Below are positions 41,801 through 60,231 of a stretch of 64,000 nt of DNA, in pieces (position 1 is the first letter of the stretch; each line of letters begins with the position of its first letter). Origin of the DNA: Acidobacteriota bacterium (GTDB taxonomy: Bacteria > Acidobacteriota > UBA6911 > RPQK01 > JAJDTT01); contig CBDCJH010000002.1 in the NCBI GenBank assembly GCA_965217775.1, forward strand, positions 1,152,001 to 1,216,000. The letters are read 5' to 3'. The position numbers and the translations under genes are program-made. The notes beneath the pieces were generated by a model. That model had not been told where the DNA came from. It saw only the letters and a list, made by a program, of their open reading frames with translations, and ran no database searches.

Positions 41801-42097
41801 CGCCGTGATTTCGTATCGGCCCGGGGGCAGACCGCTTCTCCGGTAGTTGCCGTTGGCGTTGGTCAGCAGCGGGAAGATCTCATTGGTGTCGACCCGATGG
41901 ATCTCCACCTCGACCCCGGGCGCCGCTTCGCCGCTCTCCTTGCGGACATGGCCCACGAGGGTCCCGGCGCCGATCTGGGCCAGCGGCTCGGCGGGACTCC
42001 AGAACAGGAAGACAGCCAGGAGGACCGAGATCCGGAGATGCCGTCCTTGCCGACGGGAGAACATCTTTTTACACGGGATACGGTGTGGGGACCACAT
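38882..42097 (-). CDS. TonB-dependent receptor (Oar-like, carboxypeptidase-regulatory N-domain)
   Basis: TKSGTNEFHG, FKRNQLGATLGGP, QDTWKAGPRLTLNLGLRYE and C-terminal RQIQLALKFYF; start uncertain. Confidence 0.92.
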   Translation of the reverse strand: MWSPHRIPCKKMFSRRQGRHLRISVLLAVFLFWSPAEPLAQIGAGTLVGHVRKESGEAAPGVEVEIHRVDTNEIFPLLTNANGNYRRSGLPPGRYEITASLPGHGTQVRTHIALLVEQIREENFHLFPGDPGTRHSTRSDTVLAGTGREDRGQLIDQEKLESMPVNTRDLGQLVSLAAGAAPSHESRGRSVKVLGMRRKDNLTFIDGTLFTHGDGTPSFHASTDALREFDVKTGLYSAEYGIRPGGQIVAVTKSGTNEFHGGWFWFHRNDNLDARNFFEQRKAEFKRNQLGATLGGPLYLPGLLNGRDRAWFFISYQMRSIRETKPLTGVVPTPEQKAGQFAAPIRDPLTGDFFPENRIPPQRLDPVSLKLLRFWPAPNTPSALNYTSPDSHSPLDNPQVIARIDLRQSEVSRWAGRFVWDSTDWTSTQPISAFSTRHPLATLGQSLSYTRSLSPRAQSTASLHWFRRPYDSVVSPRAVQLDLGIPELLLSEVDRVGVPIVQIQGYTRIGDYSFLGPSSLGNWQGKKDLTLVEGDHALKTGIHFRRHYNLYVTSRRSRFNFFDRYTGNGFADFLLGYLSQSRLGGEGSRGRFHQDSYYLYLQDTWKAGPRLTLNLGLRYELRLPWRDKRGFMSNLDPATGQTVPTLLDLDLKPWETGRFQPNYPLIRWNPLDGILPRLGMSLRLAEKTVLRTGYGLHANEPDLNMVLRLSRNPRPGAERLIFNSPLETPSLRLVDPFPDEGRGAAIPDHYGFQTPLPLPRTHSWGLSLQHEFTPHWLLDTGYHGSRSTDLLETVSWNDAAPGTGDRQLRRPWPHLQAVHFPFANADSWYQGMHFQVEKAAGNDGLYLLASLSWSRLIQTGGGTTGYTSRRIYRSRNLPLEATRGVADFHIPVRLMLSGGFDLPFGPNRPLLQSGLASRLLGGWSIRAISNFQEGGWRTVSLPGDPLDTGSEASQWPDRIRDANLPLHERTPARWFDTTAFALPQPFQYGNSGRGVVEAPGLFNLDISLRRTFRLAETQRLEARVEAFNATNRPNFVVNARQQTLLYGTAGFGVLARTLAARQIQLALKFYF

Positions 42098-42221
42098 TGG
42101 GGGAATTATCCATCGGCCGCGGCATTTGCCCGGCCCGGCGCGCCACGGGACGACAGCGCTCGAAAACCGGGGGTCAGTCTACCACGCAGGGGGTGCCGTC
42201 TCGGCTCGGAACGGTCACTGT

Positions 42222-43595: not shown

Positions 43596-43601
43596 GGGGA
43601 G

Positions 43602-44489
43602 CTAGGATTCGACGACCGGGTTCTGGCCGCCGCGCAGGACGGTGCTTCCTCCGTAGAACTCGGTCTGGTCGATGCTGGGGCGCGCGTCGATGCCGGCCAG
43701 GTCGAGACGCTGACTCTGGGAGAAGAAGTGGGCGGGGTTGTCCCAGACGATGGTGCGGATGGTCTGGAGTGTGATCCCGCTCTCCAGCATCAGGTCGGTG
43801 GTCTTGGGGACCTTCAGGGGATCGCTGATGCCCCAGTCCGCGGCGCTGTTGATGAGGATCCGCTCGCTTCCGTATTCCTTCACCAGCTTCACCATCCGGA
43901 CCTCGTCCATTTTGGTGTGGGGGTAGATGGTGTGGCCGGCCCAGCATCCGGTGTCCAGGACCAGGGGAAGGGTCTCCTCCGTGTTGTGATCGATGAGAGC
44001 CCTTTCCTCCGGGAAGCCGACGCTGCGGATCAGATCCAACGAGCGGATGGTGCCCCGCTTCTTGTCCCGGTGAGGCGTATGCACCAGCACGGGCAGGTCC
44101 ATCTCCATGGCCAGTTCCAGTTGGCGGGCGAAAATGCGCTCTTCCGCGTCCGTCTGATCGTCGTAGCCGATCTCTCCCACTGCGACGACGCCGTCCTTCT
44201 GCAGGTAGCGGGGAAGCAGCGAGATCACTTCCTCAGCCAGCTTGGGGTTGTTGGCCTCCTTGGGGTTCAGGCCGATGGTGCAGAAATGGCGGATGCCGAA
44301 TTGGGAGGCCCGGAAACGCTCCCAGCCCAGCAGGCTGTTGAAGTAGTCGATGAACGATCCGACGTTGGTCCGGGGCTGCCCCAGCCAGAAGGAGGGCTCG
44401 ACGATGACCAGGATCCCGTTTTGGGCCATTGACGCGTAATCGTCGGTGGTCCGGGAGGTCATGTGAATGTGAGGATCGAAGATCTTCAT
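43602..44489 (-). CDS. eboB: TatD-family hydrolase (EboB-like)
   Basis: FDPHIHMTSRTTDDY, GWERFRASQFGIRH, VGEIGYDD, HTPHRDKK and SAADWGISDPL. Confidence 0.88.
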   Translation of the reverse strand: MKIFDPHIHMTSRTTDDYASMAQNGILVIVEPSFWLGQPRTNVGSFIDYFNSLLGWERFRASQFGIRHFCTIGLNPKEANNPKLAEEVISLLPRYLQKDGVVAVGEIGYDDQTDAEERIFARQLELAMEMDLPVLVHTPHRDKKRGTIRSLDLIRSVGFPEERALIDHNTEETLPLVLDTGCWAGHTIYPHTKMDEVRMVKLVKEYGSERILINSAADWGISDPLKVPKTTDLMLESGITLQTIRTIVWDNPAHFFSQSQRLDLAGIDARPSIDQTEFYGGSTVLRGGQNPVVES

Positions 44490-44498
44490 AGTTGAAAT

Positions 44499-45374
44499 TT
44501 ATTGGACCATCTTGGCCAACGAGGCGTCAATAGCGGCCAGGATGCGGTCCTCGGTTTCGATGTCCCGGCGCCGTTCCAGCTCCAGGCGGCTTCGTTCGTC
44601 GCGGACGTAACCCAGGGACCGGGCCGCCCAGTAGCGGTGACGGGAATTGCCCTGCTGTAGATAGGGATAGATGCGCCCCATTCGCTCGCGACTGATTCGG
44701 GGCGCCACCACCCACCAGATGTCGGGCGGCACGTCCCGTCCGGCGGCCTCCCGTTCGCTGGCGTAATCGTCGGCCATCCGGGAGAGTTCCGGATTGAAGC
44801 GGGACTCCAGTCCCAGGATGCGCTCAATTCGTATTCCATTGAACAGGCTCTTGAGCACCATCTGGTTGAAGTTCAGTTCCGGGAAGTGGGCCGCCGGGTA
44901 GGGGTTCTCGCAGGCGATGGCTTCCAGCAGAGGAACGATATTGGTCCGGCAGGCGTCGATGGCCGCGTCCAGAAAACGTCCGCGGCCGGGGAGTAGATTC
45001 AATCCCCGGAGCCAACTCTGCTGCTCCCGGCTGTCGCCTTGCCGATAGCACTCCAGAACTGCCTCGGAATATTCGTCGGTAGGTAGATGAGCGACCTTCA
45101 GCAGCAGGATGACACGGCCCAGTTCGTCCAGGCCCCAGTGATCGACGGGAAGGTCCGGGCGCAGGGAATTCCAGCGGCGGGTCTCACGCGGGTCCAGGGC
45201 CAGGGCCTTCTTTCCCAACCAAAAGGAGGCTCCCGCGTAGTTGCCCAACAGCCGGTTCAAATCGACGGGTTCTTCAGTGCTCCGGCACGCCGTCTCGAAC
45301 CAGCTCCGGCCGCGGCTGGAGGCGCGGGCCCTGAGAATCTCAGTCAGAAAATCGATCATGGCCTGTGGGTCCAA
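44499..45374 (-). CDS. eboA: EboA domain protein
   Basis: WGLDELGRV, YRQGDSREQ, DACRTNI...NPYPAAHF...FNQMVLKSLF and YASEREAAGRDVP. Confidence 0.85.
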   Translation of the reverse strand: MDPQAMIDFLTEILRARASSRGRSWFETACRSTEEPVDLNRLLGNYAGASFWLGKKALALDPRETRRWNSLRPDLPVDHWGLDELGRVILLLKVAHLPTDEYSEAVLECYRQGDSREQQSWLRGLNLLPGRGRFLDAAIDACRTNIVPLLEAIACENPYPAAHFPELNFNQMVLKSLFNGIRIERILGLESRFNPELSRMADDYASEREAAGRDVPPDIWWVVAPRISRERMGRIYPYLQQGNSRHRYWAARSLGYVRDERSRLELERRRDIETEDRILAAIDASLAKMVQ

Positions 45375-45702
45375 GAAACTTCCCGGCCAGCGCGCGCCCA
45401 GTGTAATCTTGCGAGAAAAGGGGTATCTGGAAGCGGCGGCACTTCAGTCACCGATTCCGTGCCGATATTGAAGAGGGGGACAAGCATGTCCCCCCTCCCA
45501 GGGTGCCCCCAGGTTTTCTCAGAAGGAATTGTAGTATTTGGCTCAGAAATCGGAAATATCCGGCGCCACCGGTCATTTGCTACTCGCTGAGGTCAGGCTG
45601 TTCCACGTATCCCAACCCGGCATAGCCGGAACCAAAAATACTTCACCGCAGCGGCGCCTTACCAGGCGCCGACCCTTCGTCTGGCTCCGCTTTGGACCGA
45701 AG

Positions 45703-45728
45703 AGGGCGCCCACAAGGGGCACCCCTAC
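45703..45728 (-). repeat. GTAG-type REP
   Basis: Minus strand GTAGGGGTGCCCCTTGTGGGCGCCCT. Confidence 0.75.
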
Positions 45729-45766
45729 CGAATATTCTTGGTCAAGTTGCACAAGACGGACCTGAA

Positions 45767-45946
45767 TCAGGTAAAGAGCTTGGCGGCGATAGCGAGGGTG
45801 ATGGTGATGTTGATACCTAACATGACCTCCAGCCGCAGGAGCCGACGGTCCGGAGAGGCGACTTCCTGAGCGGCGGCTTTGGCCTTGGCTTCGCTGGCCC
45901 CGGCTTCGATCAAGGCATCGTAGGTGTCGGACAGCATGAGTGCCAT
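45767..45946 (-). CDS. small (59 aa) coiled-coil protein with C-terminal TM helix (CCDC90/DUF1640-like)
   Basis: AGGAG RBS; MALMLSDTYDALIEAGASEAKAKAAAQEVA...LRLEVMLGINITITLAIAAKLFT; below the ORF-track cut-off. Confidence 0.7.
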   Translation of the reverse strand: MALMLSDTYDALIEAGASEAKAKAAAQEVASPDRRLLRLEVMLGINITITLAIAAKLFT

Positions 45947-46145
45947 CAGCTTTTCTCCTTCCTGCAGGTAGCTGCCATGTCCAACAACGTAATGATACCA
46001 AACCAGTCTGCAAGTAGCCGATCACGGGGTTCCTGGCTCCGTTTCTCCGTTAGCTTCAACAGTGGTGAAGATCTCCCCACGGGTCCGGTGGATGACCATT
46101 TTTTTGTAGCGCCAAGAATACGGCGACGAACCACGGTCCCATTTC

Positions 46146-48029
46146 TTGCCATGTGTTTACCGCCTGTTGCATCATGCTCAGACTGTGCTGGCGCGTCGAG
46201 GCTTCCTCAGGCTCGGGTTTTTGCTGGTGGGACTTCTCCTGCTTCTCTCCGCTGAGGGGCGGAGTGAGGAGTTCCGGCGCCTCGACCAGGAGCAGATTCC
46301 CCCCGAATTTGCCACGCTGGAAGAGTGGATGGCGAGGGCGCACGAACTCCGGACCCGGATCATGGTCAGTGCGGGTCTGGAACCGCTGCCCGCCAGGATG
46401 CCTTTGGATCCAAGGCTTTCCGCGCCTGTGACGCGGGACGGCTATACGGTCCAGAACGTCAGCCTGGAAACGCTCCCCGGGTTCTACCTGACCGGGAACC
46501 TCTACCGTCCCCTGGGAATCGATCCCCCCTATCCGGCCGTTCTCTGTCCTCATGGCCATTGGAAGAACGGACGGCTCGAGAACGGCGAGCGGTCCTCGGT
46601 CCCCGGCCGCTCAATCAATCTGGCCCGGCGCGGCGCCGTGGTGTTCACCTACTCCATGATCGGTTACGAGGAGAACAAGGACCTCATCCCCCATCGGTTC
46701 GACGAGCCCCGCTACCAGCTCTGGGGTTTCGGTCCGCTGGGCCTTCAGCTCTGGAACAGCCTCCGGGCCTTGGACTTTCTCATCTCCAGGACCGACGTGG
46801 ACCCCGGCCGGATCGGAATGACCGGAGCCTCGGGCGGCGGCACCCAGACTTTCCTGCTGATGGCGGTGGATCCCAGAATCGCGGTGGCGGCGCCGGTGAA
46901 CATGATCTCGGCCCACTACCAGGGGGGATGCATCTGCGAGAACGCTCCCCTCTTGCGCCTGGATTCCATCAATACGGAGATCGGGGCCATGATGGCGCCC
47001 CGGCCGTTGATGCTGGTCTCCACCAGCGGCGATTGGACCTCCAAGACTCCGGACGTGGAGTTTCCGGCCATCCGCTCCGTCTACCGCCTCTTCGGCGCGG
47101 AGGAACGGGTCGCCAATGCCCATTTCGACTACCCGCACAACTACAACCGGGACAGCCGGGAGGCGGTCTATGGATGGTTCGGGAAATGGCTGTGGGGTCA
47201 GGAACGGCCAGATGAAGAGCCGTTCCAGGTGGAGCCGACGGATGCACTGAAAGCCGTCCTTCCGGCGCCGCCGCTGCCTTTGGAAGAGCTCTTCTCCAAC
47301 TTCGCCGCCCGGGCCCGGGGACAGATCGAGATTCATAAACCGCGAGACTGGGAAGGAATCTTTCGCTACCGGGAGGTCTTTGGCCCCGTCTTGCGGCATT
47401 CCCTTGCGGTGCCTCCGTCACCAGGCTCCGTCGAGATGGAGATGCTGCTGCCCGATCCCCATCACCGCGCCGGCCAGTCCGTGCTCGTGGTGCATCCGCG
47501 AGAGCAAGAGGAACGGGCCCGGGCATTGGCGCGCCGATACCGGGATGAGGGACGCTTGGCGTTCCGGATCAGCCCCTATCCCCAGGTCGAGTCGCTGACT
47601 CCTCCCGAAGACGTCAATCACTGGACGACCTACAACCCGACTCCGGCGTCGCGGCGGATTGACCAGGTCCGGCGGGCCTGCCGCGAGATCCTGGACCGGG
47701 GAGACGTGACCGGACTGGACTTGGTGGGGCTGGGAGAGGCGGGGGCGTGGGCCCTGCTCGGCGCCGTCACGGGTCCCTCTGTCGGGAGCGTCACGGTCGA
47801 ATTGAAAGAGTTTTCGGTCGACACGGATCAGGCCTTTCTGGAACGCCTCAACGTGCCCCTGCTGCGGCGGGCTGGAGACCTGAGGACGGCGGCAGTTCTA
47901 TTGGCCCCCGGGCAACTGACGCTCCACGAGCTCGACGAGGGCCCACTGAAGCTCTGGTTCCAGGAGGTCTACGGGGTGGCCGGCGCGGCCGGCATGCTCG
48001 AGTTCCGGAGCGCACCCATCGGCGAGTAG
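46146..48029 (+). CDS. alpha/beta hydrolase (acetylxylan-esterase-like)
   Basis: LTGNLYRP, PAVLCPHGH, RIGMTGASGGGTQT nucleophile elbow, GGCICEN and HNYN; start uncertain. Confidence 0.85.
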   Translation: MPCVYRLLHHAQTVLARRGFLRLGFLLVGLLLLLSAEGRSEEFRRLDQEQIPPEFATLEEWMARAHELRTRIMVSAGLEPLPARMPLDPRLSAPVTRDGYTVQNVSLETLPGFYLTGNLYRPLGIDPPYPAVLCPHGHWKNGRLENGERSSVPGRSINLARRGAVVFTYSMIGYEENKDLIPHRFDEPRYQLWGFGPLGLQLWNSLRALDFLISRTDVDPGRIGMTGASGGGTQTFLLMAVDPRIAVAAPVNMISAHYQGGCICENAPLLRLDSINTEIGAMMAPRPLMLVSTSGDWTSKTPDVEFPAIRSVYRLFGAEERVANAHFDYPHNYNRDSREAVYGWFGKWLWGQERPDEEPFQVEPTDALKAVLPAPPLPLEELFSNFAARARGQIEIHKPRDWEGIFRYREVFGPVLRHSLAVPPSPGSVEMEMLLPDPHHRAGQSVLVVHPREQEERARALARRYRDEGRLAFRISPYPQVESLTPPEDVNHWTTYNPTPASRRIDQVRRACREILDRGDVTGLDLVGLGEAGAWALLGAVTGPSVGSVTVELKEFSVDTDQAFLERLNVPLLRRAGDLRTAAVLLAPGQLTLHELDEGPLKLWFQEVYGVAGAAGMLEFRSAPIGE

Positions 48030-48085: not shown

Positions 48086-49435
48086 ATGACCGACCCATCT
48101 CATGCGGAACAGACGCAAACAGCGCCCCGGGGATTCCGGCCCGTCCTGCGAAAGCTGGGTCCCGGGCTCATCATCTCCGGGTCCATCGTGGGTTCGGGAG
48201 AGCTCATCGCCACCACCACCCTCGGCGCCGAGGTCGGCTTCGTCGCCCTCTGGCTCATCATCCTGAGCTGCGGCATCAAGGTCGTGGTCCAGGAGGAGCT
48301 GGGACGGTACGTGGTGTCCTCCGGAGAGACCGCCCTGCAGGGGCTGAACCGGGTCCCGGGACCCCGGTGGCGGGTATCGTGGGTGGTCTGGTGCTGGTGG
48401 ATCATGACCCTGGGAGTCGTCGTCCAGGGGGGCGGCATCGTCGGGGGGGTCGGTCAGGTCTTCCACCTCTTTCTGCCTCAGATCAGCGGGACCGCATGGG
48501 CCATGGTCGCCGCGGTCACGGTGATGGCGCTTCTGTTCCGGGGGCACTACGGCAGGGTGGAGAAGATCTGTGTGGGGATGGTGGTCAGCTTCACCTTCGT
48601 GACCATCGCCTGCGCCGTCCTGCTGGGGTGGACCCCTTTCTCCCCCACTGCTGAAGATTTCCTCTCCGGCCTGCGGTTTGGCCTTCCCGAGGGAGGGATC
48701 GCCGTTGCTTTCGCCGCCTTCGGAATCACCGGAGTGGGGGCGACGGAGTTGATCATGTATCCCTACTGGTGCCTGGAGAAAGGCTACTCGCGCTTCGTGG
48801 GCCCCCGGGAAGAGGGCGCCGCTTGGGAAGGACGGGCGCGAGGCTGGATACGGGTCATGCAGGCGGATGTGCTCATGGCCATGGTGGTCTACACAACGGC
48901 TACGGTGGCCTTCTACATTCTGGGTGCGGCGGTCCTTCACGGGATGGGGACGGTCCCGGCCGGCTACGGAATGGTCTCCACCCTGTCGAACATGTACACC
49001 TCCACCCTGGGACAGGGGGCCTTCTACCTCTTTCTGGTGGGGGCCTTCTTCGTGCTCTACTCGACTCTCTTCGCCGGCGTCGCCAGCAGTTCCCGGGTCA
49101 TCACGGACTTCCTGCATTTGGTGGGAGTGGTCCGGATCGAGGGCGAGAGCCAGCTCCTGTTCTGGAGGCGGGTGGTGATCGTGGTGGTCCCGACGCTCTA
49201 CGTCGTACTCTACGCATGGGTGGCGCAGCCGGTCTTCATGGTCATCATCGGCGGGATCTTCCAGGCGTGCATGCTCCCCGTCATCAGTTTCTCGGCCATC
49301 TACCTCCGCTATCGCCACACCGACCGGGCGATCCGGCCGAATCTCGCGGTCGACGTGCTGCTCTGGGCCTGCTCCACCGTCATGCTCCTCTTTGCCGTCT
49401 ACTACGTGGCCAAGAGGCTCGGGTTCGGCGCCTGA
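48086..49435 (+). CDS. Nramp/MntH-like membrane transporter
   Basis: LGPGLIISGSIVGSGELI, GITGVGATEL and YPYWCLEKGY; about 11 TM segments. Confidence 0.85.
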   Translation: MTDPSHAEQTQTAPRGFRPVLRKLGPGLIISGSIVGSGELIATTTLGAEVGFVALWLIILSCGIKVVVQEELGRYVVSSGETALQGLNRVPGPRWRVSWVVWCWWIMTLGVVVQGGGIVGGVGQVFHLFLPQISGTAWAMVAAVTVMALLFRGHYGRVEKICVGMVVSFTFVTIACAVLLGWTPFSPTAEDFLSGLRFGLPEGGIAVAFAAFGITGVGATELIMYPYWCLEKGYSRFVGPREEGAAWEGRARGWIRVMQADVLMAMVVYTTATVAFYILGAAVLHGMGTVPAGYGMVSTLSNMYTSTLGQGAFYLFLVGAFFVLYSTLFAGVASSSRVITDFLHLVGVVRIEGESQLLFWRRVVIVVVPTLYVVLYAWVAQPVFMVIIGGIFQACMLPVISFSAIYLRYRHTDRAIRPNLAVDVLLWACSTVMLLFAVYYVAKRLGFGA

Positions 49436-49457
49436 CGGTCCGTCACATGGGTTGTCC

Positions 49458-49612
49458 CTACGGCACCGGTTTCCTGAAGATGACGATGTGCTGGTGGGGC
49501 AGGAGGTCCAGCGTCTCGACCCTGACCAGGGGATGCGCTGAGATCTGGCGCCAGACCTGATCCTGGTTCATCTTGTGCAGCCGGACGATGGGAACCGCCG
49601 GATCTTCCGCCC
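49458..49612 (-). pseudogene. 3' fragment of the class I SAM methyltransferase (variant A)
   Basis: AEDPAVPIVRLHKMNQDQVWRQISAHPL...IFRKPVP*; homologous to the C-terminus of 59509-60231; ends at the junction motif. Confidence 0.88.
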
Positions 49613-49928
49613 TGCGGGAAAAAGGGGACAGTCTATTTTTCCGATTCCCGGAACGGGAACGGGTCCAACACATTGAGCTAGCCGCGAAGCGAATCTAGGG
49701 CATTCCCGAGTTCCGTTTCTACGCGATTGCGGATGGGATCAAGCAGCTCTTGCATGGCCGAGCCGCCGGGATTGGACCGCGTCGTCGCGATCCTCGTTCA
49801 AACCTGCTTCCCCTGTTCTCCTGAACCGTCAGAAAAATGAGAAAAGTCCAGAGTCTATTGGGTGGTTCCCGTGATTTGGGTCGTTCGGTGCCGCAGGGGC
49901 AGAATCGACGGTCGGCGATCAGGCGAGT

Positions 49929-50864
49929 CTACGTGACGAAGGCGTGCGAGCGCTGCTCCCGCAAGGAAAACAGCAATCCGCCCATTTGGGGGATGGGGTG
50001 TCGGCGACGACGGTATCGACCTTGCCGCCGATATGTTTCCAGTAGCTGCGCCACCTTCTCTGCCGGCCCGACGGCCAATCCATCCGTCAGAAATCGAAAA
50101 CGCCGGCGAAAAGCTCCGGCACGGGTGAATCCACGTCGCTGGTCCTGATGGAGGATCCACCGGGGGATCGCGGCCTGGTTGTCCCGGGTGGGGACGGCTC
50201 CTCGATAGTGCAAGCGAGCCCGGTAACTGCTGTACACGTCCGTTCCGGGATCCGAGGGGAATAGTTCCTCCAGTGGAATCAGATCTTGATCCTCGCCGGT
50301 GAGCCTCCAGCGGGCCGAACCCCACTTCCACTGCTCGGGTCGTTTGACCAGTCCGGCTCGGATGGCATTGAGTTCCACGTAGAGGATGGCGTCCTGGACG
50401 GCTTCGCTTCCCAAGAGTTCCGGGTTCTTGAAACGATCACTCCAAAAATGGCCTCGCCGTGCAAACTTCAGGTTGAACTACCGAGCATATAGCCCGTTCA
50501 AGTTCTGCATCAGTTTCGACACGTCAAATAGACGCTGGTTGAAAGCCTCCCATTGGGCGGCGGTCCAACCGGCGGTCTTCTCCTCTGCCTGTCGTCCATA
50601 AAGTTTGTCGGCGCTCTCCATCAACTCCTCGCGGGACAAGGGCCGAGGTTTCTCAAAATGGACGATAAAGTGGAAATGATTGCCCATGATCTGGAAAGCG
50701 GCCAAACGACACCGGTAGGCATTGACGTAGAACAACATCATGTCCAGGAATTTGTGCCGGGCTTGGCGGTCTTCAAAGGGGAACCAATCGGGCCGGCCGG
50801 CGACTCGATTGGTGAGGTAATAGAAGGCGGCTTCTGTGCTTTTGTGTCGTGCGGTTCGGGCCAT
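49929..50864 (-). pseudogene. HUH Y1 (RAYT-like) transposase copy 1, with an internal amber stop
   Basis: Colinear with copies 2 and 3 (936 nt); YYLTNR, MGNHFH and YVELNAIRAGLV; TAG at 50478-50480 replaces Trp. Confidence 0.9.
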
Positions 50865-50997
50865 GGCCACGGTCCTCAGTGAATCGAATCGGACTCGGTC
50901 TCGGAGGGGAGTCGGTGCGTACCCCTGATGACAACAACGATTCAAAACTGAGAAAGGCGAAAAACGAACGTCCCAAAAAACAGACTGTCCCCTTCCC

Positions 50998-51040: not shown

Positions 51041-51152
51041 GGAGGGCACCCATGACGGTCCGTGACAAGAGTCGCCGCGGATTTGGACGAGCGTTGGTTC
51101 GCGGCCGACGGCAAGGGATGGCGACCACAAGGGTCGCCCCTGCGGGGGTTGT

Positions 51153-51423
51153 CTACCCGGTCGGCTTCTGGAAGATGACGATGTGCTGCCGGGGCAGGAG
51201 GTCGAGCGTCTCCACCCAGACCAGCGGATGCGCTGAGATCTCGCGCCGGACCTGGTCCAGGCTCATCTTGTGGAGCCGGAGGATGGGAACCGTCGGGTCC
51301 TCGGCCCGGTACTCCACCAGGACCAGGCGCCCACCCGGCTTCAGCGCCCGGTGAATTCCCCGGATCATCTCCCAGGGATGAGAGAGTTCGTGGTAGACAT
51401 CCACCAGGAGGGCGAGGTCCACG
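51153..51423 (-). pseudogene. 3' fragment of the SAM methyltransferase (variant B) with downstream REP
   Basis: About 51080-51423 duplicates about 59435-59779. Confidence 0.9.
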
Positions 51424-51752
51424 AAAAAAAGGGACCAAAAAAAGGGACAGTCTATTTTTCTCGTTCTTCCCATGGCCGGGTCCAGAACCTTAAGATTCAG
51501 CACCGCCTCGGCCGGGTCCAACTTGAGCAGTTCAGCTTTCCGTTGTTGCTGGGGCCGTCTATCGTCGCTGAGTCGCTCGGCTTTGTCCTCGAACGCCTTG
51601 AGACGCTCTTCAGCCAGCGGTTTCAGGGTCTGCTCAACGATCAGATCCACCAGCTCCTGGGGCGTGAAAAAGCTGCCGCAGTCCTTGCGGGCATAGGGAT
51701 TGGGACGAATGGAGATCTTGCCGTCACCTTTACGGATCGGTTCCTGCTCTAG

Positions 51753-53823
51753 CCCGAGTTTACCGTATTGGAGATCAGGATAAAGATAAGTTGTTTTTTT
51801 GCAAAGAGATAGGGCAGGTGTCCCGTATGACCTACGGAGCCGAACCAAGGGGTCGGATGGCGTGTTTTTCGAGTCCCAGGACTTCGTACATCGTGCGCTG
51901 TTCGTCCGTCATCTGCGAGAGCGTCGTCCGGAGTTCGGGCTCGCCGCCCTCCTCCCGCGCTGGATACAGCACGTCGACCTCGCGGATCCCGCTGAGCGCG
52001 TCCAGCAGCGCGGGGATCGAATCCTGCACGCCGTGGCGGCTCAGTTCCCGCTGCAGCAGGCCGCACAGCATCAGCGCCAGCACGCAGCAGAACACATGCA
52101 CCGCGATCTTCTGGTCCGTCCAGTGGTATTGTGGCCGAATGGCGATGCAGTTGCTGTCCTTGAGCTGCCGGAAGGCGCTCTCGACATGATGTTGCGCGCG
52201 GTAGCCGCGCACCAGCTCGGCATCGCTCCAGCCCGCCTGGTCGGTGAACAGCAGGGTCTTGCCCAGTAACCTGCGCTGAAGCTGCTCCCAGGCGCGCCGC
52301 TGGAAGCGATAATTCACCTTCGGCAAGCCGTCCACCTCACGCACCTGAACGGCGAACAGGTCCCGCATGTGCCGGGCCCGCAGCCAGCCGTCGACCTTCT
52401 TGCGCGTGCCGGCCAGGCTCGGCTTGCGTCCCCCCCGGATCTTGCCCTCGCGCCAGCGCCACAACTGCCACTGCAGGGCGCGCAGGTGCTGGCGCCGCTT
52501 AGCGATCTCGCGCAGCAGCGTCCGACATTGGGCGTCGAACAGCGCTTGGTTCCAAGTCACCAGCACCGTGCGCTGGACGCCGAACACTTTGGACTCGGTG
52601 CGGTAGGAGCGCACGCCGGCCAGCCCGTCGGCCTCCAGCGAGCGCATCTGGTCCGCAGGCACGGCCAGCAGGTGCGGATGCTGGGTGGGGACCAGCGAGC
52701 CGATGAAGTGGAACGGGCTGCGCTCGACCCAGTCCAAGTTCGGGCGCGAGTTGTTGCCCTTGTCGAAGACCAGGGTGACCGTCTCGGTCCCGGCGGCGAT
52801 CTCCCGGTAGCGCCGGGCCAAGTCGGCGGCGAGGCTTTGGAACGTTGGCGCGTCGGGGCGGTTGCCGGGATAGGTGCGATGCAGCAGGGGCAGGCGGAAG
52901 TCGGCCGTGACCAGCAGGGCCACGCCGATGATGCGCAACGACCTGCGGCCCTCCTTGCTGTGACCGCGCTGAGCCAGTTGGGAGCGCTGGTTGAAGGAAT
53001 TGATGTAGGTAAAGAAGTTAGTGGCGTCAAACAGCACTTGGCCCAGGTCGAGGCGGAACTCGCGGGTCATGGCGGCAACGATGTCGCGTTCAATGGCGGG
53101 GAGGGCGGGGACGGGGACGCGGTGCATATGGTCCCAGAAGCGCTGGCTGGTGAGCTGGTTGGAGCGCAGGGGGAGCAGGCGGCGCAGGGCGGTGGAGTTG
53201 AACCAACGGGCGAGGCTGGCCTTGGAGCCGGGGGCGAGGCAGCGGTTGAGGACGGCGGCGAGCAAGTAGGTGCCGACGGAGGGACCGGAGCCGCGCTTGG
53301 GGAGATGGCGGTCGATGTGCTCGACCAACTGCAAGCGGCGGGCGAGGGTAAGCAGGGCGGCCGAGGCCCCGAATTCGCGCACGACCGCCTGGAGCGGCTG
53401 GGCGGGGGCGGGGGCGGCGCGGAGCTTCTCGATGATCTTGTCGGCGCGACCGAGATAGGTCTGGGAGACGATCTTGGGTTTGCCGTCGACGCGCTTGCAG
53501 ACGCGAGCGTAGTAGTAGGGGCGGCCCCGGATGATCTTCTTGACGAGGCTGGCCATATATTTAGGTCATACAATAGCGTATGGATCCGACCGGTGTCAAG
53601 CGATATATCCGTAAAAACTTCATTGATATATGGAATAAGAGTTCTGGAGAAGACCTGACAAATCCCACCATATGTTAGGTCATACAAAAATCAATGGGAC
53701 GAGAGCAAGGGCCTCGGCCGGGCTGGGTGATAAACCCTTCCTTATCAATAACTTGAATCTGAATCGTCGGTCTGCCCACGCGCTAGGGCAATGCTATGCT
53801 GGTGCGAACACGGTAAAGTCGAG
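51753..53823 (-). mobile_element. IS1634-family insertion sequence
   Basis: TIRs CCCGAGTTTACCGTATT / (rc) CTCGACTTTACCGTGTT; CTAG TSD at 51749-51752 and 53824-53827. Confidence 0.9.
51832..53556 (-). CDS. IS1634 family DDE transposase
   Basis: MASLVKKIIRGRPYYY...RVDGKP; LFDATN, RGHSKEGR, VFDKGNNS, VESAFRQLK and RPQYHWTDQKI motifs. Confidence 0.9.
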   Translation of the reverse strand: MASLVKKIIRGRPYYYARVCKRVDGKPKIVSQTYLGRADKIIEKLRAAPAPAQPLQAVVREFGASAALLTLARRLQLVEHIDRHLPKRGSGPSVGTYLLAAVLNRCLAPGSKASLARWFNSTALRRLLPLRSNQLTSQRFWDHMHRVPVPALPAIERDIVAAMTREFRLDLGQVLFDATNFFTYINSFNQRSQLAQRGHSKEGRRSLRIIGVALLVTADFRLPLLHRTYPGNRPDAPTFQSLAADLARRYREIAAGTETVTLVFDKGNNSRPNLDWVERSPFHFIGSLVPTQHPHLLAVPADQMRSLEADGLAGVRSYRTESKVFGVQRTVLVTWNQALFDAQCRTLLREIAKRRQHLRALQWQLWRWREGKIRGGRKPSLAGTRKKVDGWLRARHMRDLFAVQVREVDGLPKVNYRFQRRAWEQLQRRLLGKTLLFTDQAGWSDAELVRGYRAQHHVESAFRQLKDSNCIAIRPQYHWTDQKIAVHVFCCVLALMLCGLLQRELSRHGVQDSIPALLDALSGIREVDVLYPAREEGGEPELRTTLSQMTDEQRTMYEVLGLEKHAIRPLGSAP

Positions 53824-54544
53824 CTAGGAGCCTCTCGTAAATCGATCCGAGTTGTTGCACCGACATGTCGCGGAAGTTGACGAAGTGCCTTCGCCCCTCC
53901 CTTCCCTGGGCATGGCTGAGGGCATGGATGATGGGAGCGATGGTAGCGTCGGGGAGGCGAGCCTGTTCCAGCAGCGGCGAGGCACCAGCCGCAAATAGCC
54001 CCCCGTTGTAGGGGGGCAGTCCAAGGGACGGATCGCCCTGGTCGATGATTCTAAAGAGATTGACCAAGCGGTCGTAGTAGGTGGTGACGACGGTCGAAAA
54101 GACGTCCAGGGACCCCATCCTGCGAGCGATGTCGTCCCGGACATGCTTGCGCAATCCGTAGTCATCGTAACGCTCGTCGTTGACCGGTAACAGATTCCGG
54201 TCCTCAGCATAGAGGACAAAGAGCAACCGATAGAGGAAGATCAAGGCTGCGTGGCGAACCTGGGGCAGGTCCTTGCCCGTGGCATTGGCCATCGCCTCCA
54301 CGAGGTGGGGAAAGGCGCTCTCGAAGACGACCCCAGACAGATCTTGGGCAACCTGCTCCTCATAGCGTTTCCCCTCCACCAAGGCGTGTTCCAGGAACGT
54401 GCCGGTTGCACCTTCCCGGAGGGTGAACGAAAAAAAGGGACCGAAAAAAAGGGACAGTCTATTTTTCTCGTTTCTTCGTGAACATCACGAAGCCAGGCGG
54501 CGAATCTGACATCACTGCAAAAAAAGCGGGTACCATTACGGACT

Positions 54545-55567
54545 GTGGCGGACACGTTACGGTTCGGTCCAGACACCATGAATGCACCGTGGGGGCTGGA
54601 CTCCAGGCTGAAGCTTGTTGTGTTGGCATGCGACTTTTTCAAGGCCGAAAAAATCGCAGCACACCATGCGGCCATTGGTAAGGAACTGCCGAAGCAGGGA
54701 AGTCCGACACCGCTTGCCGTAGCCGACTTTCTCCATTACCTGCAAGTCAAGAAGGCGTTCCCAAAGGCGCCGAATCCCTTGCATGTAGCGCTAATCCTGG
54801 AGCGGATGGTCTCCGCGGGAGTTCTCGTCCACGCGGGGAGCGGCACGGCATTCGCGGGACTCCAGAACCACTACATCTACTTCCTGACAGCGCACGAAGC
54901 ACGACGGGGTCTGTTCCGATTGGTGCCCGTGCTTGGCCCAGAGTACCTCTATAGACTATGTGAGCCAAGCTTGGTCCATATCACGGGAACCAGAGCGGGC
55001 GCTGTGGTCGCCGGAACCGGCCTCGTCGTCGACACGCGCCACGTCCTTACCTGTCGCCATGTCGTATCCGACATGACGGTGGATCCGCGGCAGACGTTTC
55101 AGGGGAGGGAATACGTGGTCGACCCCGGCTCGATCCACCGACACGCCGAGGTTGACGTGGCGGTCGTCCGCGTGTGGGGGGCGCCGTTGTCTCCGCTGAA
55201 CGGAGCCCTCATGCAAGCTCCCATTGTAGCAAAGACCGTTTATACGCTTGGCTACCCGAAGCTTCCCGGCCTCCGAGATGCGTCCGTGACGATGCAGCCG
55301 GGAGCAGTGACGAACGAATCGGTCACTTCATTGGCGGGGGAGACGCTGTTCCTCTACTCGGCTATTTCCAGACCAGGGAACAGCGGCGGACCAGTCGTGT
55401 CCGAGGACGGCTACGTGGTGGGCCTCTCTATCGTGGATGCCACTGGCCAGTACCGGACCAACGAGGCATTCTCACCGCACTATGCAGGCATCCCCGCGCA
55501 GGTCGTCGTCCAGGCGGTGAAGGATCTCGGTTTGGGCATCGAATTGCCGTTCGAGCCCTACGAGTGA
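54545..55567 (+). CDS. trypsin-like serine protease with N-terminal extension
   Basis: Catalytic triad LTCRHV / DVAV / GNSGGP; no signal peptide; start may be at 54578. Confidence 0.87.
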   Translation: MADTLRFGPDTMNAPWGLDSRLKLVVLACDFFKAEKIAAHHAAIGKELPKQGSPTPLAVADFLHYLQVKKAFPKAPNPLHVALILERMVSAGVLVHAGSGTAFAGLQNHYIYFLTAHEARRGLFRLVPVLGPEYLYRLCEPSLVHITGTRAGAVVAGTGLVVDTRHVLTCRHVVSDMTVDPRQTFQGREYVVDPGSIHRHAEVDVAVVRVWGAPLSPLNGALMQAPIVAKTVYTLGYPKLPGLRDASVTMQPGAVTNESVTSLAGETLFLYSAISRPGNSGGPVVSEDGYVVGLSIVDATGQYRTNEAFSPHYAGIPAQVVVQAVKDLGLGIELPFEPYE

Positions 55568-55824
55568 CGCACTCAGCAGGTCTCCTGGCTCAGCGTAGGC
55601 CCCTCCGCTTCGATGTTAGCGAAAAAGGGACCGAAAAAAAGGGACAGTCTATTTTTCACGTTTCTTCAGTTTCATTCAGAGACGGGAAGTGTGCTGGTTT
55701 TCGTGAGGTTCCTTCGCCTTTCCTGGTTCTGAGTCGTTGTTGTCATCAGAGGCAGACGTGAGAGGTGAGAGGTGCGAACCCGAACCGACTCCCTCGCGAG
55801 TCCGATTCACCGAGGACCGTGCCC

Positions 55825-56760
55825 ATGCCCCGAACCGCGCGACACAAGAGCAAGGAAGCCGCCTTCTATCACCTCACCAATCGAGTCACCGGCTGGACCG
55901 ATTGGTTCCCATTCGAAGACCGGCGAGCCCGTCGCAAACTCCTGGACATGATGTTGTTCTACGTCAGTGTCTACCGGTGTCGTTTGGCCGCGTTTCAGAT
56001 CATGGGCAATCACTTCCACTTCGTCGTCCATTTTGAGAAGCCTCGCTCCTTGTCCCGCAAGGAGTTGATGGAGAGCGCCGACAAGCTTTATGGGCGAAAG
56101 GCAGAGAAGAAAACCGCCGATTGGACCGTCGCCCAATGGAAGGCTTTCAACCAGCGTCTCTTTGACGTGTCGAAACTGATGGCGAATGTGGATGGGATCT
56201 ATGCCCGGTGGTACAACCGCCAGTTTCGACGGCGAGGGCATTTTTGGAGTGAACGTTTCAAGAACCCGGAACTATTGGGAACCGAAGCGGTCCAAGACGC
56301 CATTTTTTACGTGGAACTCAACGCCGTCCGGGCCGGACTGGTCAAGCGGCCCGAGCAGTGGAAGTGGGGCTCAGCCCGCTGGAGACTGTTCGGCAAAGAT
56401 CAAGACCTGATTCCACTGGAGGAACTGTTTCCCTCGGATCCCGGAACGGACCTGTACAGCAGTTACCGGGCTCGTTTGTATTATCGGGGGGCCGTCCCGA
56501 CCCGACCCAACCAGGCTGCGATCCCCCAGTGGATCCTCCATCAGGAGCAGCGACGTGGATTTACCCGTGCCGGAGCCTTTCGCCGGCGTTTGCGGTTTCT
56601 GACGGACGGGTTGGCCGTCGGTCCGGCCGAGAAGGTGGCGCAATTGCTGGAGACGTATCGGCAACAAGGTCGATATCGGCGTCGCCGACACCCCATTCCC
56701 CAACTGGGCGGAGTGATGTTTTCCCTGCGGGAGCAACGCTCGCACGCCTTCCTATCGTAG
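55825..56760 (+). CDS. HUH Y1 (RAYT-like) transposase copy 2
   Basis: YHLTNR, MGNHFH (HUH), RGHFWSERFK and YVELNAVRAGLV..PEQWKWGS; long C-terminal extension (RFLTDGLAVG). Confidence 0.9.
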   Translation: MPRTARHKSKEAAFYHLTNRVTGWTDWFPFEDRRARRKLLDMMLFYVSVYRCRLAAFQIMGNHFHFVVHFEKPRSLSRKELMESADKLYGRKAEKKTADWTVAQWKAFNQRLFDVSKLMANVDGIYARWYNRQFRRRGHFWSERFKNPELLGTEAVQDAIFYVELNAVRAGLVKRPEQWKWGSARWRLFGKDQDLIPLEELFPSDPGTDLYSSYRARLYYRGAVPTRPNQAAIPQWILHQEQRRGFTRAGAFRRRLRFLTDGLAVGPAEKVAQLLETYRQQGRYRRRRHPIPQLGGVMFSLREQRSHAFLS

Positions 56761-56989
56761 ACTCGCCTGATCTCCGTTTGTCGATTCTGCCACCGCGGCA
56801 CCGACTGACCGAGATCACGGGAAACGCCCAATAGACTGAATTGTCCTGTTGAATGCGTGGAAAGTCCTTCGGACTTCCATCCATTTGCCAGAGGTTCACC
56901 GTTCTGCTTCCTGCTTCCGGGTGGGATTCTCAAGACTCGCGACACGCAACACAGAGCCGGAAAAAGGGGACAGTCTATTTTCTTTTCCC

Positions 56990-57458
56990 CACCGCAACGG
57001 GGTTTTCTCCTCAACGGCGATCCGGCGGGCCGGACGCTGTTTACCTATCGATCTGCCGACTTGGTTCGCTGGAGCCAGGCGCCGGCGTTGTCCTTCGCCC
57101 GCTACGGCTATCGATCGGCTCCCGTGAGCCGGGTGGAGGAGGCCCATACCTCCAATGGGAACTGGGACCGCGGCAATGTCCTCGTTTCCACCTACCTCCA
57201 GTGGCACGGAGGTCCCGACTTGAAATCCACCACCATGGACGTCGGGCTTCTGGTCAGCAACGACGGCCTCCATTTTCGAGAGCCTGTCCCCGATTTTTCC
57301 TGGATCCCCCGGGGCGCTCCAGGGACCTGGGAAGGGGGAGGCACCTGGGGCGTATCGTTCCTCAACGTGGACAACGAGACGCGCATCTACTATGGCGGCA
57401 CCAACAGCCTGGCGGCACTCGCGACCGGGGGCGTCGGGTTGGCGACGATCAAACGCGG
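56990..57458 (+). pseudogene. captured internal fragment of a beta-propeller hydrolase gene
   Basis: Open frame with SADLVRW, LLVSNDGLHFREP and ETRIYYGG; no own start or stop; bounded by motifs. Confidence 0.72.
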
Positions 57459-57460
57459 TT

Positions 57461-57530
57461 GGAAGGTGGCGTACGGTTGGAAGGTGGCGTAGGAAGGTGG
57501 CGTAGGAAGGTGGCGTAGGAAGGTGGCGTA
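57461..57530. repeat. GGAAGGTGGCGTA tandem repeat x5
   Basis: Copies at 57461, 57479, 57492, 57505 and 57518, followed by TTCAAGACTGTCCCTTTCTG. Confidence 0.92.
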
Positions 57531-57561
57531 TTCAAGACTGTCCCTTTCTGTTCTCGGAGGC

Positions 57562-57935
57562 CCGTCATCAGTTTCTCGGCCATCTACCTCCGCTACCGCC
57601 ACACCGACCGGGCGATCCGGCCGAGTCTAGCGGTCGACGTGCTGCTCTGGGCCTGCTCCACCGTCATGCTCCTCTTTGCCGTCTACTACGTGGCCAAGAG
57701 GCTCGGGTTCGGCGCCTGACGGCCCGTCACATGGGTTGTCCCTACGGCACCGGTTTCCTGAAGATGACGATGTGCTGGTGGGGCAGGAGGTCCAGCGTCT
57801 CGACCCTGACCAGGGGATGCGCTGAGATCTGGCGCCAGACCTGATCCTGGTTCATCTTGTGCAGCCGGACGATGGGAACCGCCGGATCTTCCGCCCGGTA
57901 CTCCACCAGGACCAGCCGCCCGCCCGGTTTCAGGG
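57562..57935. repeat. duplicate of the Nramp 3' end plus methyltransferase variant A 3' end
   Basis: Near-identical to about 49278-49612 with a few substitutions; extends about 40 bp further into the methyltransferase. Confidence 0.92.
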
Positions 57936-58150
57936 CGCAAAAAAAGGGACCAAAAAAAGGGACAGTCTATTTTTCTCGTTTCTTCAGTTTCATTCAGCGT
58001 TTCTTCAGTTTCATTCAGAGACGGGAAGTGTGCTGGTTTTCGTGAGGTTCTTTCGCCTTTCCTGGTTCTGAGTCGTTGTTGTCATCAGAGGTGAGAGGTG
58101 CGAACCCGAACCGACTCCCTCGCGAGTCCGATTCACCGAGGACCGTGCCC

Positions 58151-59086
58151 ATGCCCCGAACCGCGCGACACAAGAGCAAGGAAGCCGCCTTCTATCACCT
58201 CACCAATCGTGTCACCGGCTGGACCGATTGGTTCCCCTTCGAAGACCCGCGAGCCCGTCGCAAACTCCTGAACCTGATGTTGTTCTACGTTAGTGTCTAC
58301 CGGTGTCGTCTGGCCGCATTTCAGATCATGGGCAATCATTTCCACCTCGTCGTCCATTTTGAGAAGCCTCGCTGCTTGTGCCGCAAGGAGTTGGAGGAGA
58401 GCGCCCGCAAGCTTTATGGGCGAAAAACCGATGTGGAAACCGGCGGTTGGACCGACGACCAGTGGGAGGCTTTCAACCAGCGTCTGTTTGACGTGTCGAA
58501 ACTGATGGCGAATGTGGATGGGATCTATGCCCGGTGGTACAACCGCCAGTTTCGACGGCGAGGGCATTTTTGGAGTGAACGTTTCAAGAACCCGGAACTA
58601 TTGGGAACCGAAGCGGTCCAAGACGCCATTCTTTACGTGGAACTCAACGCCGTCCGGGCCGGACTGGTCAAGCGGCCCGAGCAGTGGAAGTGGGGCTCAG
58701 CCCGCTGGAGACTGTTCGGCAAAGATCAAGACCTGATTCCACTGGAGGAACTGTTTCCCTCGGATCCCGGAACGGACCTGTACAGCAGTTACCGGGCTCG
58801 TTTGTATTATCGGGGGGCCGTCCCGACCCGGCCCAACCAGGCTGCGATCCCCCGGTGGATCCTCCATCAGGAGCAGCGACGTGGATTTACCCGTGCCGGA
58901 GCCTTTCGCCGGCGTTTGCGGTTTCTGACGGACGGGTTGGCCGTCGGGCCGGCAGAGAAGGTGGCGCAATTGCTGGAGACGTATCGGCAACAAGGTCGAT
59001 ATCGGCGTCGCCGACACCCCATTCCCCAACTGGGCGGAGTGATGTTTTCCCTGCGGGAGCAACGCTCGCACGCCTTCCTATCGTAG
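58151..59086 (+). CDS. HUH Y1 (RAYT-like) transposase copy 3
   Basis: Near-identical to copy 2, including leader and trailer; differences cluster in the N-terminal half. Confidence 0.9.
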   Translation: MPRTARHKSKEAAFYHLTNRVTGWTDWFPFEDPRARRKLLNLMLFYVSVYRCRLAAFQIMGNHFHLVVHFEKPRCLCRKELEESARKLYGRKTDVETGGWTDDQWEAFNQRLFDVSKLMANVDGIYARWYNRQFRRRGHFWSERFKNPELLGTEAVQDAILYVELNAVRAGLVKRPEQWKWGSARWRLFGKDQDLIPLEELFPSDPGTDLYSSYRARLYYRGAVPTRPNQAAIPRWILHQEQRRGFTRAGAFRRRLRFLTDGLAVGPAEKVAQLLETYRQQGRYRRRRHPIPQLGGVMFSLREQRSHAFLS

Positions 59087-59356
59087 ACTCGCCTGATCTC
59101 CGTCCGTCGATTCTGCCACCGCGGCACCGACTGACCGAGATCACGGGAAACGCCCAATAGACTGCATTGTCCTGTTGAATGTGTGGAAAGTCCTTCGGAC
59201 TTCCATCCATTTGCCAGAGGTTCACCGTTCTGCTTCCTGCTTCCGGGTGGGATTCTCAAGACTCGCGACACGCAACACAGAGCCGGAAAAAGGGGACAGT
59301 CTATTTTCCCCGCTCATTCATATCTGAAGGCATCTCAGGATTGAGCGCGGACGGTT

Positions 59357-59395
59357 GGAAGGTGGCGTTGGAAGGTGGCGTTGGAAGGTGGCGTT
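59357..59395. repeat. GGAAGGTGGCGTT tandem repeat x3
   Basis: Followed by TTCAAGACTGTCCCTTTCTG, as at 57531. Confidence 0.9.
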
Positions 59396-59508
59396 TTCAA
59401 GACTGTCCCTTTCTGTTTGCGTGTTTGCGTGACTGAATTGGACGGGCGTTGGATCGCAGCCGACGGTAAGGGACGGCGACCACAAGGGCCGCCCGTACGG
59501 GAGGTGTC

Positions 59509-60231
59509 CTACCCGGTCGGCTTCTGGAAGATGACGATGTGCTGGCGGGGCAGGAGGTCGAGCGTCTCCACCCAGACCAGCGGATGCGCCGAGATCTCGC
59601 GCCGGACCTGGTCCTGGCTCATCTTGTGGAGCCGAAGGATGGGAACCGCCGGGTCCTCGGCCCGGTACTCTACCAGGACCAGGCGCCCACCCGGCTTCAG
59701 CGACCGGTGAATTCCCCGGATCATCTCCCAGGGATGAGAGAACTCGTGGTAGACGTCCACCAGGAGGGCGAGGTCCACGCTCTCGGGAGAGAGACCAGGG
59801 TCCTGGATGGTCCCTCGGATGGGTTTCACATTGCCGATTTTTCTCTGGGCGGAGCGGCGGCGGATGATCTGGAGCATCTCGTCCTGAATGTCTACCGCCA
59901 GCACCCGCCCCCCGGATCCCACCCGCTTGGCCAAACGAAAAGAAAAGTAGCCGGATCCGGCCCCGATGTCGGCGATGGTCATTCCCGTCAAGGTTCCCAG
60001 AGCGTCCAACAGCGCCTCAGGGTCCTCTTCAACCTCCCGTTCGGGGCGTTCCAGCCAGGAGGCGCCCTGGTGTCCCATGACGCGGGAGATCTCACGGCCC
60101 AGGTAGAACTTGCCGGTTCCGTGGGGATCCGTGCTGGTCCGGTGCTCGTAGCGAGGCGGTTCCGCACCGGAAATGCCCTGAAGCAGCAACGGAAGGATGC
60201 AGGCAAGGAGCGGAAATGGAGTCGATCTCAT
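59509..60231 (-). CDS. class I SAM-dependent methyltransferase (signal peptide)
   Basis: IADIGAGSGYF motif I, LAVDIQ, VDVYHEFSHP and LKPGGRLVLVEY; start at MRSTPFPLL. Confidence 0.9.
   Translation of the reverse strand: MRSTPFPLLACILPLLLQGISGAEPPRYEHRTSTDPHGTGKFYLGREISRVMGHQGASWLERPEREVEEDPEALLDALGTLTGMTIADIGAGSGYFSFRLAKRVGSGGRVLAVDIQDEMLQIIRRRSAQRKIGNVKPIRGTIQDPGLSPESVDLALLVDVYHEFSHPWEMIRGIHRSLKPGGRLVLVEYRAEDPAVPILRLHKMSQDQVRREISAHPLVWVETLDLLPRQHIVIFQKPTG

Follow-up and report, generated by a model that had tools for sequence, protein, structure and literature searches.

The stretch analysed here, referred to as the window, comprises 64,000 nucleotides (nt) of an Acidobacteriota genome (G000; 6.43 Mb on two contigs, C1 and C2) and corresponds to G000:C2:1152001-1216000; all coordinates are window positions unless prefixed C1 or C2. 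Between a permease-like gene and a methyltransferase gene it carries two modules, each built around a gene for a Y1 transposase of the HUH type and each running from a long left repeat through a leader, a 311-amino-acid (aa) open reading frame (ORF), a 222-bp trailer and an inner co-oriented repeat to an inverted right repeat. This shared architecture, which an original prediction made from the bare sequence had described, is present, and its junctions recur in public contigs. The site as a whole is best understood, if with limited assurance, as a tandem-duplicated TIRtron, an element with terminal inverted repeats, at a position where DNA has repeatedly been gained and lost at the repeats. 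Its features are as follows, with repeats read from the sequence and genes from profile matches and alignments.

49277..49612: 3' end of the permease-like gene and a dead 146-bp methyltransferase 3' scrap, up to a repeat (core 49625); 98.8% identical to 57561-57896 and 87% to the intact gene; the scraps of four genomes form one clade (99/92)
49929..50864, minus strand: third transposase, reversed, with one internal TAG and its own left repeat (core 50983-50991); 85% aa identity
51080..51423: second methyltransferase 3' scrap with intergenic DNA, a different allele that stops exactly at the long left repeat; 93.6% identical to 59435-59779 and grouping with genome G006
51424..51469, plus strand: long left repeat (core 51444)
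51470..54427, minus strand: internal scrap (~880 bp) of a restriction-modification gene, by profile matches, interrupted by an element of the insertion sequence (IS) family IS1634 (51749-53827)
54430..54477, plus strand: long left repeat (core 54451)
54545..55567, plus strand: whole trypsin-like peptidase gene flanked by two long left repeats (Trypsin_2, E 2.8e-20); exact in contigs of runs X1 and X2
55622..55667, plus strand: module 1 left repeat, with a partial copy stopping at GGGAC
55825..56760, plus strand: Y1/HUH transposase 1 (H63-F64-H65, Y162), its 5' 330 nt almost identical to copies at other sites
56927..56937, plus strand: broken right repeat (TTCTCAAGACT), ~170 nt past the transposase stop
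56960..56991, plus strand: module 1 inner co-oriented repeat (core 56967-56975)
56992..57455, plus strand: 464-bp internal piece of a putative carbohydrate-active (beta-propeller-like) gene, by its match to protein P0001
57456..57530, plus strand: stutter repeats, 18-nt and 13-nt
57531..57552, minus strand: module 1 right inverted repeat (core 57536-57544)
57561..57938: duplicated permease 3' end and methyltransferase scrap, the start of the tandem duplicate
57939..57985, plus strand: module 2 left repeat (core 57959)
58151..59086, plus strand: Y1/HUH transposase 2
59253..59263, plus strand: broken right repeat, the same as in module 1
59286..59312, plus strand: module 2 inner co-oriented repeat (core 59293-59301)
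59313..59395, plus strand: 40-bp piece and 13-nt stutter repeats
59396..59417, minus strand: module 2 right inverted repeat (core 59401-59409)
59435..60231, minus strand: intergenic DNA and the intact methyltransferase gene, whose 3' part is a G006-like allele unlike that of the sister genome, by profile, tree and site counts

The two modules had been taken as independent. Because 57561-57896 matches 49277-49612 at 98.8%, module 2 instead reads as part of a local tandem duplicate that begins just outside a right repeat. The scaffold had also been called near-identical, which holds for the trailers (218/222 identical) and not for the ORFs, which agree at 901/936 nt (96%) and have 30 of their 35 differences inside the first 336 nt. 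Since the first 330 nt of transposase 1 differ at 5 positions from copies at other sites and at 29 from transposase 2, the pattern points to gene conversion behind this 5' part. The long left repeat occurs also at 51424 and 54430, beyond the coordinates given in the prediction, with the restriction-modification scrap between them and then the whole trypsin-like gene, so that four near-identical co-oriented long repeats (51424, 54430, 55622 and 57939) mark the site. Specifically, the scrap matches MmeI_hel (E 1.6e-5, just under the cut-off) and, weakly, N6_Mtase (E 0.05), the IS1634 match lies above its cut-off, and no second copy of the scrap was found in the genome. The trypsin-like block was found in none of the eight congeners compared (G001-G008) and so nowhere else in the nine genomes. 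Misassembly of the modules, a concern raised with the prediction, is unlikely: in public Logan contigs of sequencing runs, 56953-57508, 54448-55651 and 53798-54461 are matched in runs X1 and X2 (possibly the genome's own sample) without any difference, junctions included, although among the contigs listed none covers the whole stretch.

The repeats belong to a family that is dispersed over the genome, where GGGACAGTC occurs 255 times against 55 expected and AGGGGACAGTC 113 times against 2.7 expected. Their consensus, (G/A)GGGACAG-TC, fits the motif GGGGWSAS, about 150 copies are present per genome, and co-oriented arrays occur genome-wide. Left and right repeats diverge after the core, and the cognate repeat has no GTAG/GGAG foot and folds no better than shuffled sequences. 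To relate repeat and gene, flanks were compared for 53 full transposase copies, 11 from G000 and 42 fetched from among ~60 same-genus matches (left out were six from G001, two from G004, one from G005, two from G007 and the G008 matches of near-full or partial length). An inward-facing GGGACAGTC repeat lies on both sides of 41/53 copies, counted across 8 congeneric genomes, and 8/53 have no recognisable repeat on one or both sides. As predicted, the motif is linked to this transposase clade, being the nearest upstream repeat in 50/53 copies. Repeat and protein vary together, since a sister genus whose transposases are 50-54% identical carries GGGACAGAC instead; among more distant copies a looser repeat pattern is found on both sides in 9/19. 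A separate observation concerns arrays of a GGGACAGTCAC variant, each with 5-9 co-oriented repeats (C2:1523860-1527333, 1813705-1822792, 2110357-2122570 and 4417725-4425804), which lie mostly far from any full transposase gene and have a uniform tail within each array.

The transposase itself is recognised by Pfam Y1_Tnp (30.5 bits, cut-off 23), with the motif H63-F64-H65 and the catalytic tyrosine Y162 some 97 aa further on, in a Y---NA context, and it falls below the cut-off of the NCBIfam RAYT profile NF047646 (47.6 against 80). A profile search for a C-terminal helix-turn-helix (HTH) domain gave no match at E 0.1, and the best hit of a PDB sequence search was TnpA-REP (4ER8) at only E 0.38. 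G000 has 11 full copies, which are 85-100% identical to the query, and copies exist in all eight congeners searched; intact 936-nt ORFs make up 52/53, with a median ratio of non-synonymous to synonymous substitution rates (dN/dS) of about 0.27. Two observations on the wider family may be added. A divergent subclade (79-80% identity; L026, L027, L044, L091 and L092) has near-identical copies in G002 and G003, and G023, of another family, has two transposase copies at 80% identity, which suggests horizontal spread.

These properties place the element in a known class. TIRtrons, named in 2013, consist of a RAYT-like Y1 gene (TIRYT) between terminal inverted repeats with GGGGWSAS, belong to a dispersed repeat family with dimers and clusters, and have examples in Acidobacteria (Di Nocera et al. 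2013, PMC3733652, as far as its accessible text goes). A Y1 protein with HUH motif and catalytic tyrosine, inverted repeats other than repetitive extragenic palindromes (REPs), and the GGGGWSAS motif are all found here, and because it fits this definition the element is not a new class, contrary to the proposal of a distinct HUH element. The accessible part of the 2013 description does not treat mechanism, cargo, flank duplicates or shared sites; the present genome has 11 copies and ~150 repeats, and the left and right ends of the element diverge past the core. In the accessible text of a classification of TnpA-Y1 proteins (Quentin et al. 2018, 10.1101/279083), subclass 2.3 lacks REP-like flanks, is multi-copy and has an insertion between HuH and Y, with medians of 110 aa for the HuH-Y distance and about 325 aa for the length, whereas subclass 2.1 combines GGGG[AT][CG]A[CG] repeats with a C-terminal HTH/DnaA_C-like domain and a distance of 58-67 aa. 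With ~97 aa spacing, 311 aa and more than five diverged copies per genome, the transposase spacing resembles that of subclass 2.3 more than that of 2.1, a likeness by traits and not by subclass profile; it shares the repeat motif with 2.1 and lacks its HTH and spacing. Lack of REPs and a long protein agree with both subclasses, and the motif Y---NA, not Y---NP, departs from both. A further relative is Escherichia coli TnpA-REP, for which the accessible source reports cleavage at C/T (the slash here and below marking the break) near and far from the repeat and recombination of bacterial interspersed mosaic elements (BIMEs), with sequestering of flanking genes proposed (Ton-Hoang et al. 2012, PMC3333891). 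The likeness to such REPtrons lies in the HUH enzyme, repeat dimers with variable linkers, local amplification and the proposed sequestering of flanking genes or fragments (PMC3333891; RAYT groups in Bertels et al. 2017, PMC5581495; both in their accessible parts). The differences are that the present element has no GTAG foot and weak hairpins, is multi-copy, inserts as a unit and scores below the NCBIfam RAYT cut-off. The RAYT trait of near-single copies that do not move as a unit is not found here, with 11 full copies and with empty and filled sites in both orientations.

HUH chemistry is also used by IS200/IS605, IS91/ISCR and Helitron elements, and the latter two groups carry adjacent DNA. 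To our knowledge all of these have unlike ends and no long flank duplication, in contrast to the present ends, which are inverted copies of one motif. Integrons, in turn, consist of co-oriented site arrays with accessory genes, and homology-facilitated illegitimate recombination during natural transformation shows one-ended anchoring by homology. The present case differs in that no tyrosine recombinase came to light in the stretch read and that the illegitimate end lies at a transposase-linked repeat.

The evidence for DNA exchange comes first from the orthologous position in the congeners. The junction between the permease-like and methyltransferase genes is empty and repeat-free in G001, G004, G005, G006 and G008, a form that also occurs in run X7, and it is filled in G002, G003, G007 and G000. 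The transposase is present in G002 and G003, whereas G007 has 7.4 kb with defence-type genes (PDDEXK_4, DUF4268, DUF5131 and TcmP, nuclease genes among them), what we take to be an IS3-like pair, and no transposase of the present kind, all bounded by the same outer, inner and right repeats. On the available trees the site was founded once, since trees of two upstream genes unite the four filled genomes in one clade, and the methyltransferase scraps on their left-hand side are likewise a clade. The 3' end of the intact methyltransferase gene in G000 differs from G006 at 6/177 sites and from the sister genome G007 at 17/176. Exchange of DNA at this site is real, and it is a property of a repeat-marked chromosomal site, not of a slot within a mobile unit.

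The slot between inner and right repeat consists, by analogy with a REP dimer (BIME), of two inverted repeats and a linker that varies. An inner co-oriented repeat is found in 4/53 copies, namely the two modules and the orthologous-site copies in G002 and G003, so that the fixed slot is a feature of one site and other copies do not share the architecture on which the prediction had staked itself. The inner-repeat and linker piece was likely inserted into the old right end, since a broken right repeat lies just upstream, at a position where some other copies (C2:1808112, L029 and L034) have a whole one 165-175 nt after the stop. The linker has at least four forms: ~20 nt in G002, G003 and run X5, a different ~20 nt in G007, and ~85 nt and ~540 nt in G000.

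In module 1 the linker contains the cargo, expected as a ~470-bp hydrolase fragment. It is an internal gene piece, of 464 bp, and its product is 97% identical in aa to residues ~377-531 of P0001, so that foreign DNA joined at repeats and an intact source gene both exist, as had been proposed; the hydrolase label rests on weak matches to beta-1,2-mannobiose phosphorylase (E 0.0027, below the cut-off, and E 3e-4). The gene is without a Pfam family, Pfam named 0/50 relatives, and the weak GH130-like matches leave its enzyme family uncertain. At 98% nt identity the cargo also lies inside a 1340-nt X5 contig of another study, with other DNA on either side; no close copy was found in G000 or the eight congeners, and a metagenome scan for the DNA of the source locus gave two distant matches only. 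In 3/4 members of the P0001 cluster the predicted protein starts with a transposase fragment and continues through a G002-type inner repeat, linker and right repeat into the cargo's source gene; because these proteins read through, the source gene would have lain immediately beyond a right repeat of this kind in a relative, which would make the cargo most simply a local copy from a neighbour gene now gone. To place P0001's repeat pair at the window site is guesswork, the G002-type linker pattern having been matched in 1/9 genomes. As an observation apart, residues 626-674 of P0001 form a short in-frame insertion with dozens of matches across G006 and others in G000 and G007; it is likely a separate miniature repeat element. 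The module 2 counterpart, reported as a ~45-bp hairpin-forming piece, measures 40 bp and does not fold significantly by itself (z -0.62); a value of z -2.35 is obtained only when the constant repeat tail is folded with it. The tandem unit measures 13 nt rather than the 12 nt first given, and no source of the piece or the unit was found in the genome or the fetched loci.

Beyond the window site, 17/53 copies have 87-264-bp direct duplicates of flanking host DNA, most of them abutting the repeats. In pairs away from the window site (n=12), 63/91 differences fall at third codon positions, a count that excludes four window-site pairs and G003 L017 (7/3/2, frame unclear). At the window site, used as a control, the third-position share is 76% between intact orthologues, 30% between scraps and 54% between a scrap and its own intact gene. 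The 63/91 found in the pairs suggests two functional alleles from different lineages. Twelve sites are common to 2-4 genomes on both flanks, and 4/12 are occupied in both orientations. At C2:3908314, for instance, the unit lies in opposite orientation in G000 and G006, each with the right-side gene's scrap at the left repeat, and the other seven genomes have no insertion there. The scrap at C2:5251515 is nearer to a contig C1 copy than to its adjoining gene. Two observations attach to that locus: G000:C1 ~40,600-48,000 (L078) is a 93% second copy of it without transposase, being either an allele carried on a plasmid or another strain's DNA that was binned with the genome (contamination 7.5%), and the orthologous L075 (G005:C1:3144000-3163000) contains a flank scrap and ~11 kb of extra DNA, the latter between a repeat and a transposase gene that is truncated.

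The repeats themselves also bear marks of breakage. Tandem stutters lie beside 38/142 repeats and beside 33/5000 random sites, and partial repeat copies stop at GGGAC in 12/20 cases in G000 and 9/19 in congeners, the same point at which the window's right repeat is broken (in a search blind to breaks before GGG).

What appears to account best for these findings, and what we consider probable although by no means assured, is that a tandem-duplicated TIRtron occupies a site repeatedly gaining and losing DNA at its repeats, with an enzyme whose likely action is to nick single-stranded DNA at the repeat or close to it, and with one-ended, homology-anchored integration. Specifically, such a nick would free a 3' end whose slippage or template switching could produce the stutters and, as in the cargo, local copies, and the end linked to the protein would gain a new partner. 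Incoming DNA would be attached by one end at the repeat and by the other through homologous recombination within the flanking gene, so that each round would leave a scrap of the earlier flanking-gene allele beside the repeat and import the DNA between repeat and anchor. At the window site, the inner repeat pair would have entered the former right repeat in a single insertion, before the four genomes diverged from their ancestor; the linker would then have taken its at least four forms, one as a copy from the gene that adjoined it.

Several observations weigh against this account. No flank duplicate of at least 80 bp is present in 36/53 copies; G003 L017 runs counter to the third-position pattern (65/103 with it included); the oldest scrap at the window site, at 54%, is ambiguous and fits plain duplication followed by decay; the intact gene lies left of the unit only in three pairs, and so is not always on the right; and flank pairs at shared sites are not independent. 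Most junctions lie ~20-30 nt outside the repeat core and not at GGGAC/AGTC, 3' partial copies begin one base later (/GTC, 6/9), the 5' partial-copy tally includes four window copies of the same origin, and the tie of the cargo source to the repeat pair comes from protein translations. Additionally, the nearest relative of 44/53 transposase genes is in the same genome, a pattern not expected of copies that come in from other species, except with later gene conversion, for which there is mosaicism.

The chief competitor is an ordinary IS-like TIRtron whose flank duplicates are decayed long target duplications, whose cargo is reshuffled by host recombination between repeats and whose enzyme only spreads repeats. 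It would account for the oldest scrap by a single ancestral event and for copies homogenised within genomes, it can point to ordinary IS elements in the same cargo (IS1634, and the IS3-like pair, by presumed family, in G007), and ~150 repeat copies per genome offer ample recombination substrates. We nevertheless regard it as unlikely, though deserving serious weight, given the third-position bias in flank pairs, the foreign allele adjoining the right repeat, the reuse of the same sites in both orientations, the ~40-fold enrichment of stutters at repeats, and junctions to sequences without homology (cargo, trypsin gene). Less likely again is an integron-like cassette system in which the HUH enzyme excises DNA between co-oriented repeats as single-stranded circles and re-inserts it at another repeat, the transposase gene being one cassette. 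The four near-identical co-oriented long repeats bounding gene scrap, whole gene and transposase, the other genes between the same repeats in G007, the co-oriented arrays across the genome and a broken right repeat resembling a strand-transfer insertion at GGGAC/AGTC would all suit it. Yet many blocks are dead scraps and not genes, repeat halves stay together while the DNA on both sides changes (a crossover within the repeat would reassort them), empty sites lack any repeat, the trypsin block is in no other of the nine genomes, and no circle-closing joint of a repeat-bounded block appears among the contigs listed, which cannot show absence.

The reading put forward originally, a distinct element whose internal slot is dedicated to capturing host DNA in a Helitron-like way, now seems very improbable and is for the family largely refuted. 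The at least four linker forms at the site, one a 464-bp gene piece, do favour it; 49/53 copies are without an inner repeat, the four having it come from one site, the two modules are duplicates, and nothing specific to Helitron-like capture was found. The account in which the enzyme nicks at the repeat and integration is anchored by homology also admits a bolder, rather doubtful extension. TIRYT enzymes may be single-strand DNA integrases that make a handful of intergenic sites permanent docking points, at which DNA of related species, with defence genes and their own gene as passengers, would be spliced in, ended by the repeat and anchored by homology; this would be an HUH parallel to gene acquisition by integrons, with a cut at GGGAC/AGTC.

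The class is known, and new here are the diverged flank duplicates in 17/53 copies, the shared sites occupied in either orientation and the breaks most often at GGGAC/AGTC; a literature search, with most subscription papers outside its reach, found no mechanism, cargo capture or cut site for TIRtrons. The site and its relatives supply a defined substrate in the repeat, a candidate cut point, the sister-genus repeat as a control and predictable genomic products in the form of stutters, flank scraps and exchanged blocks, and the slot itself, as a local feature, matters less. If the enzyme does join foreign single-stranded DNA at a 9-base motif, this would explain the upkeep of 'domesticated' HUH genes, open a further path to the acquisition of defence genes and provide a small tool for single-strand integration.

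Some further observations concern the surroundings. GTAG-footed REP-like palindromes of another family lie at 51080-51160 and 59470-59510 and beside copies at C2:410116, 1809044, 2873633 and 5114845, and TIRtrons and this GTAG REP family may favour the same convergent-gene junctions. Two further Y1_Tnp matches, at C2:5635604 and C2:4665981, are unrelated to the present clade and are candidate enzymes for the GTAG REP family. The IS1634 element at 51749-53827 has a 99% copy at C2:64027-66105. Finally, 49698-49850 is a dispersed 60-150 bp repeat with ~20 genome copies that lies inside the trailer of many transposase copies, giving two trailer types.

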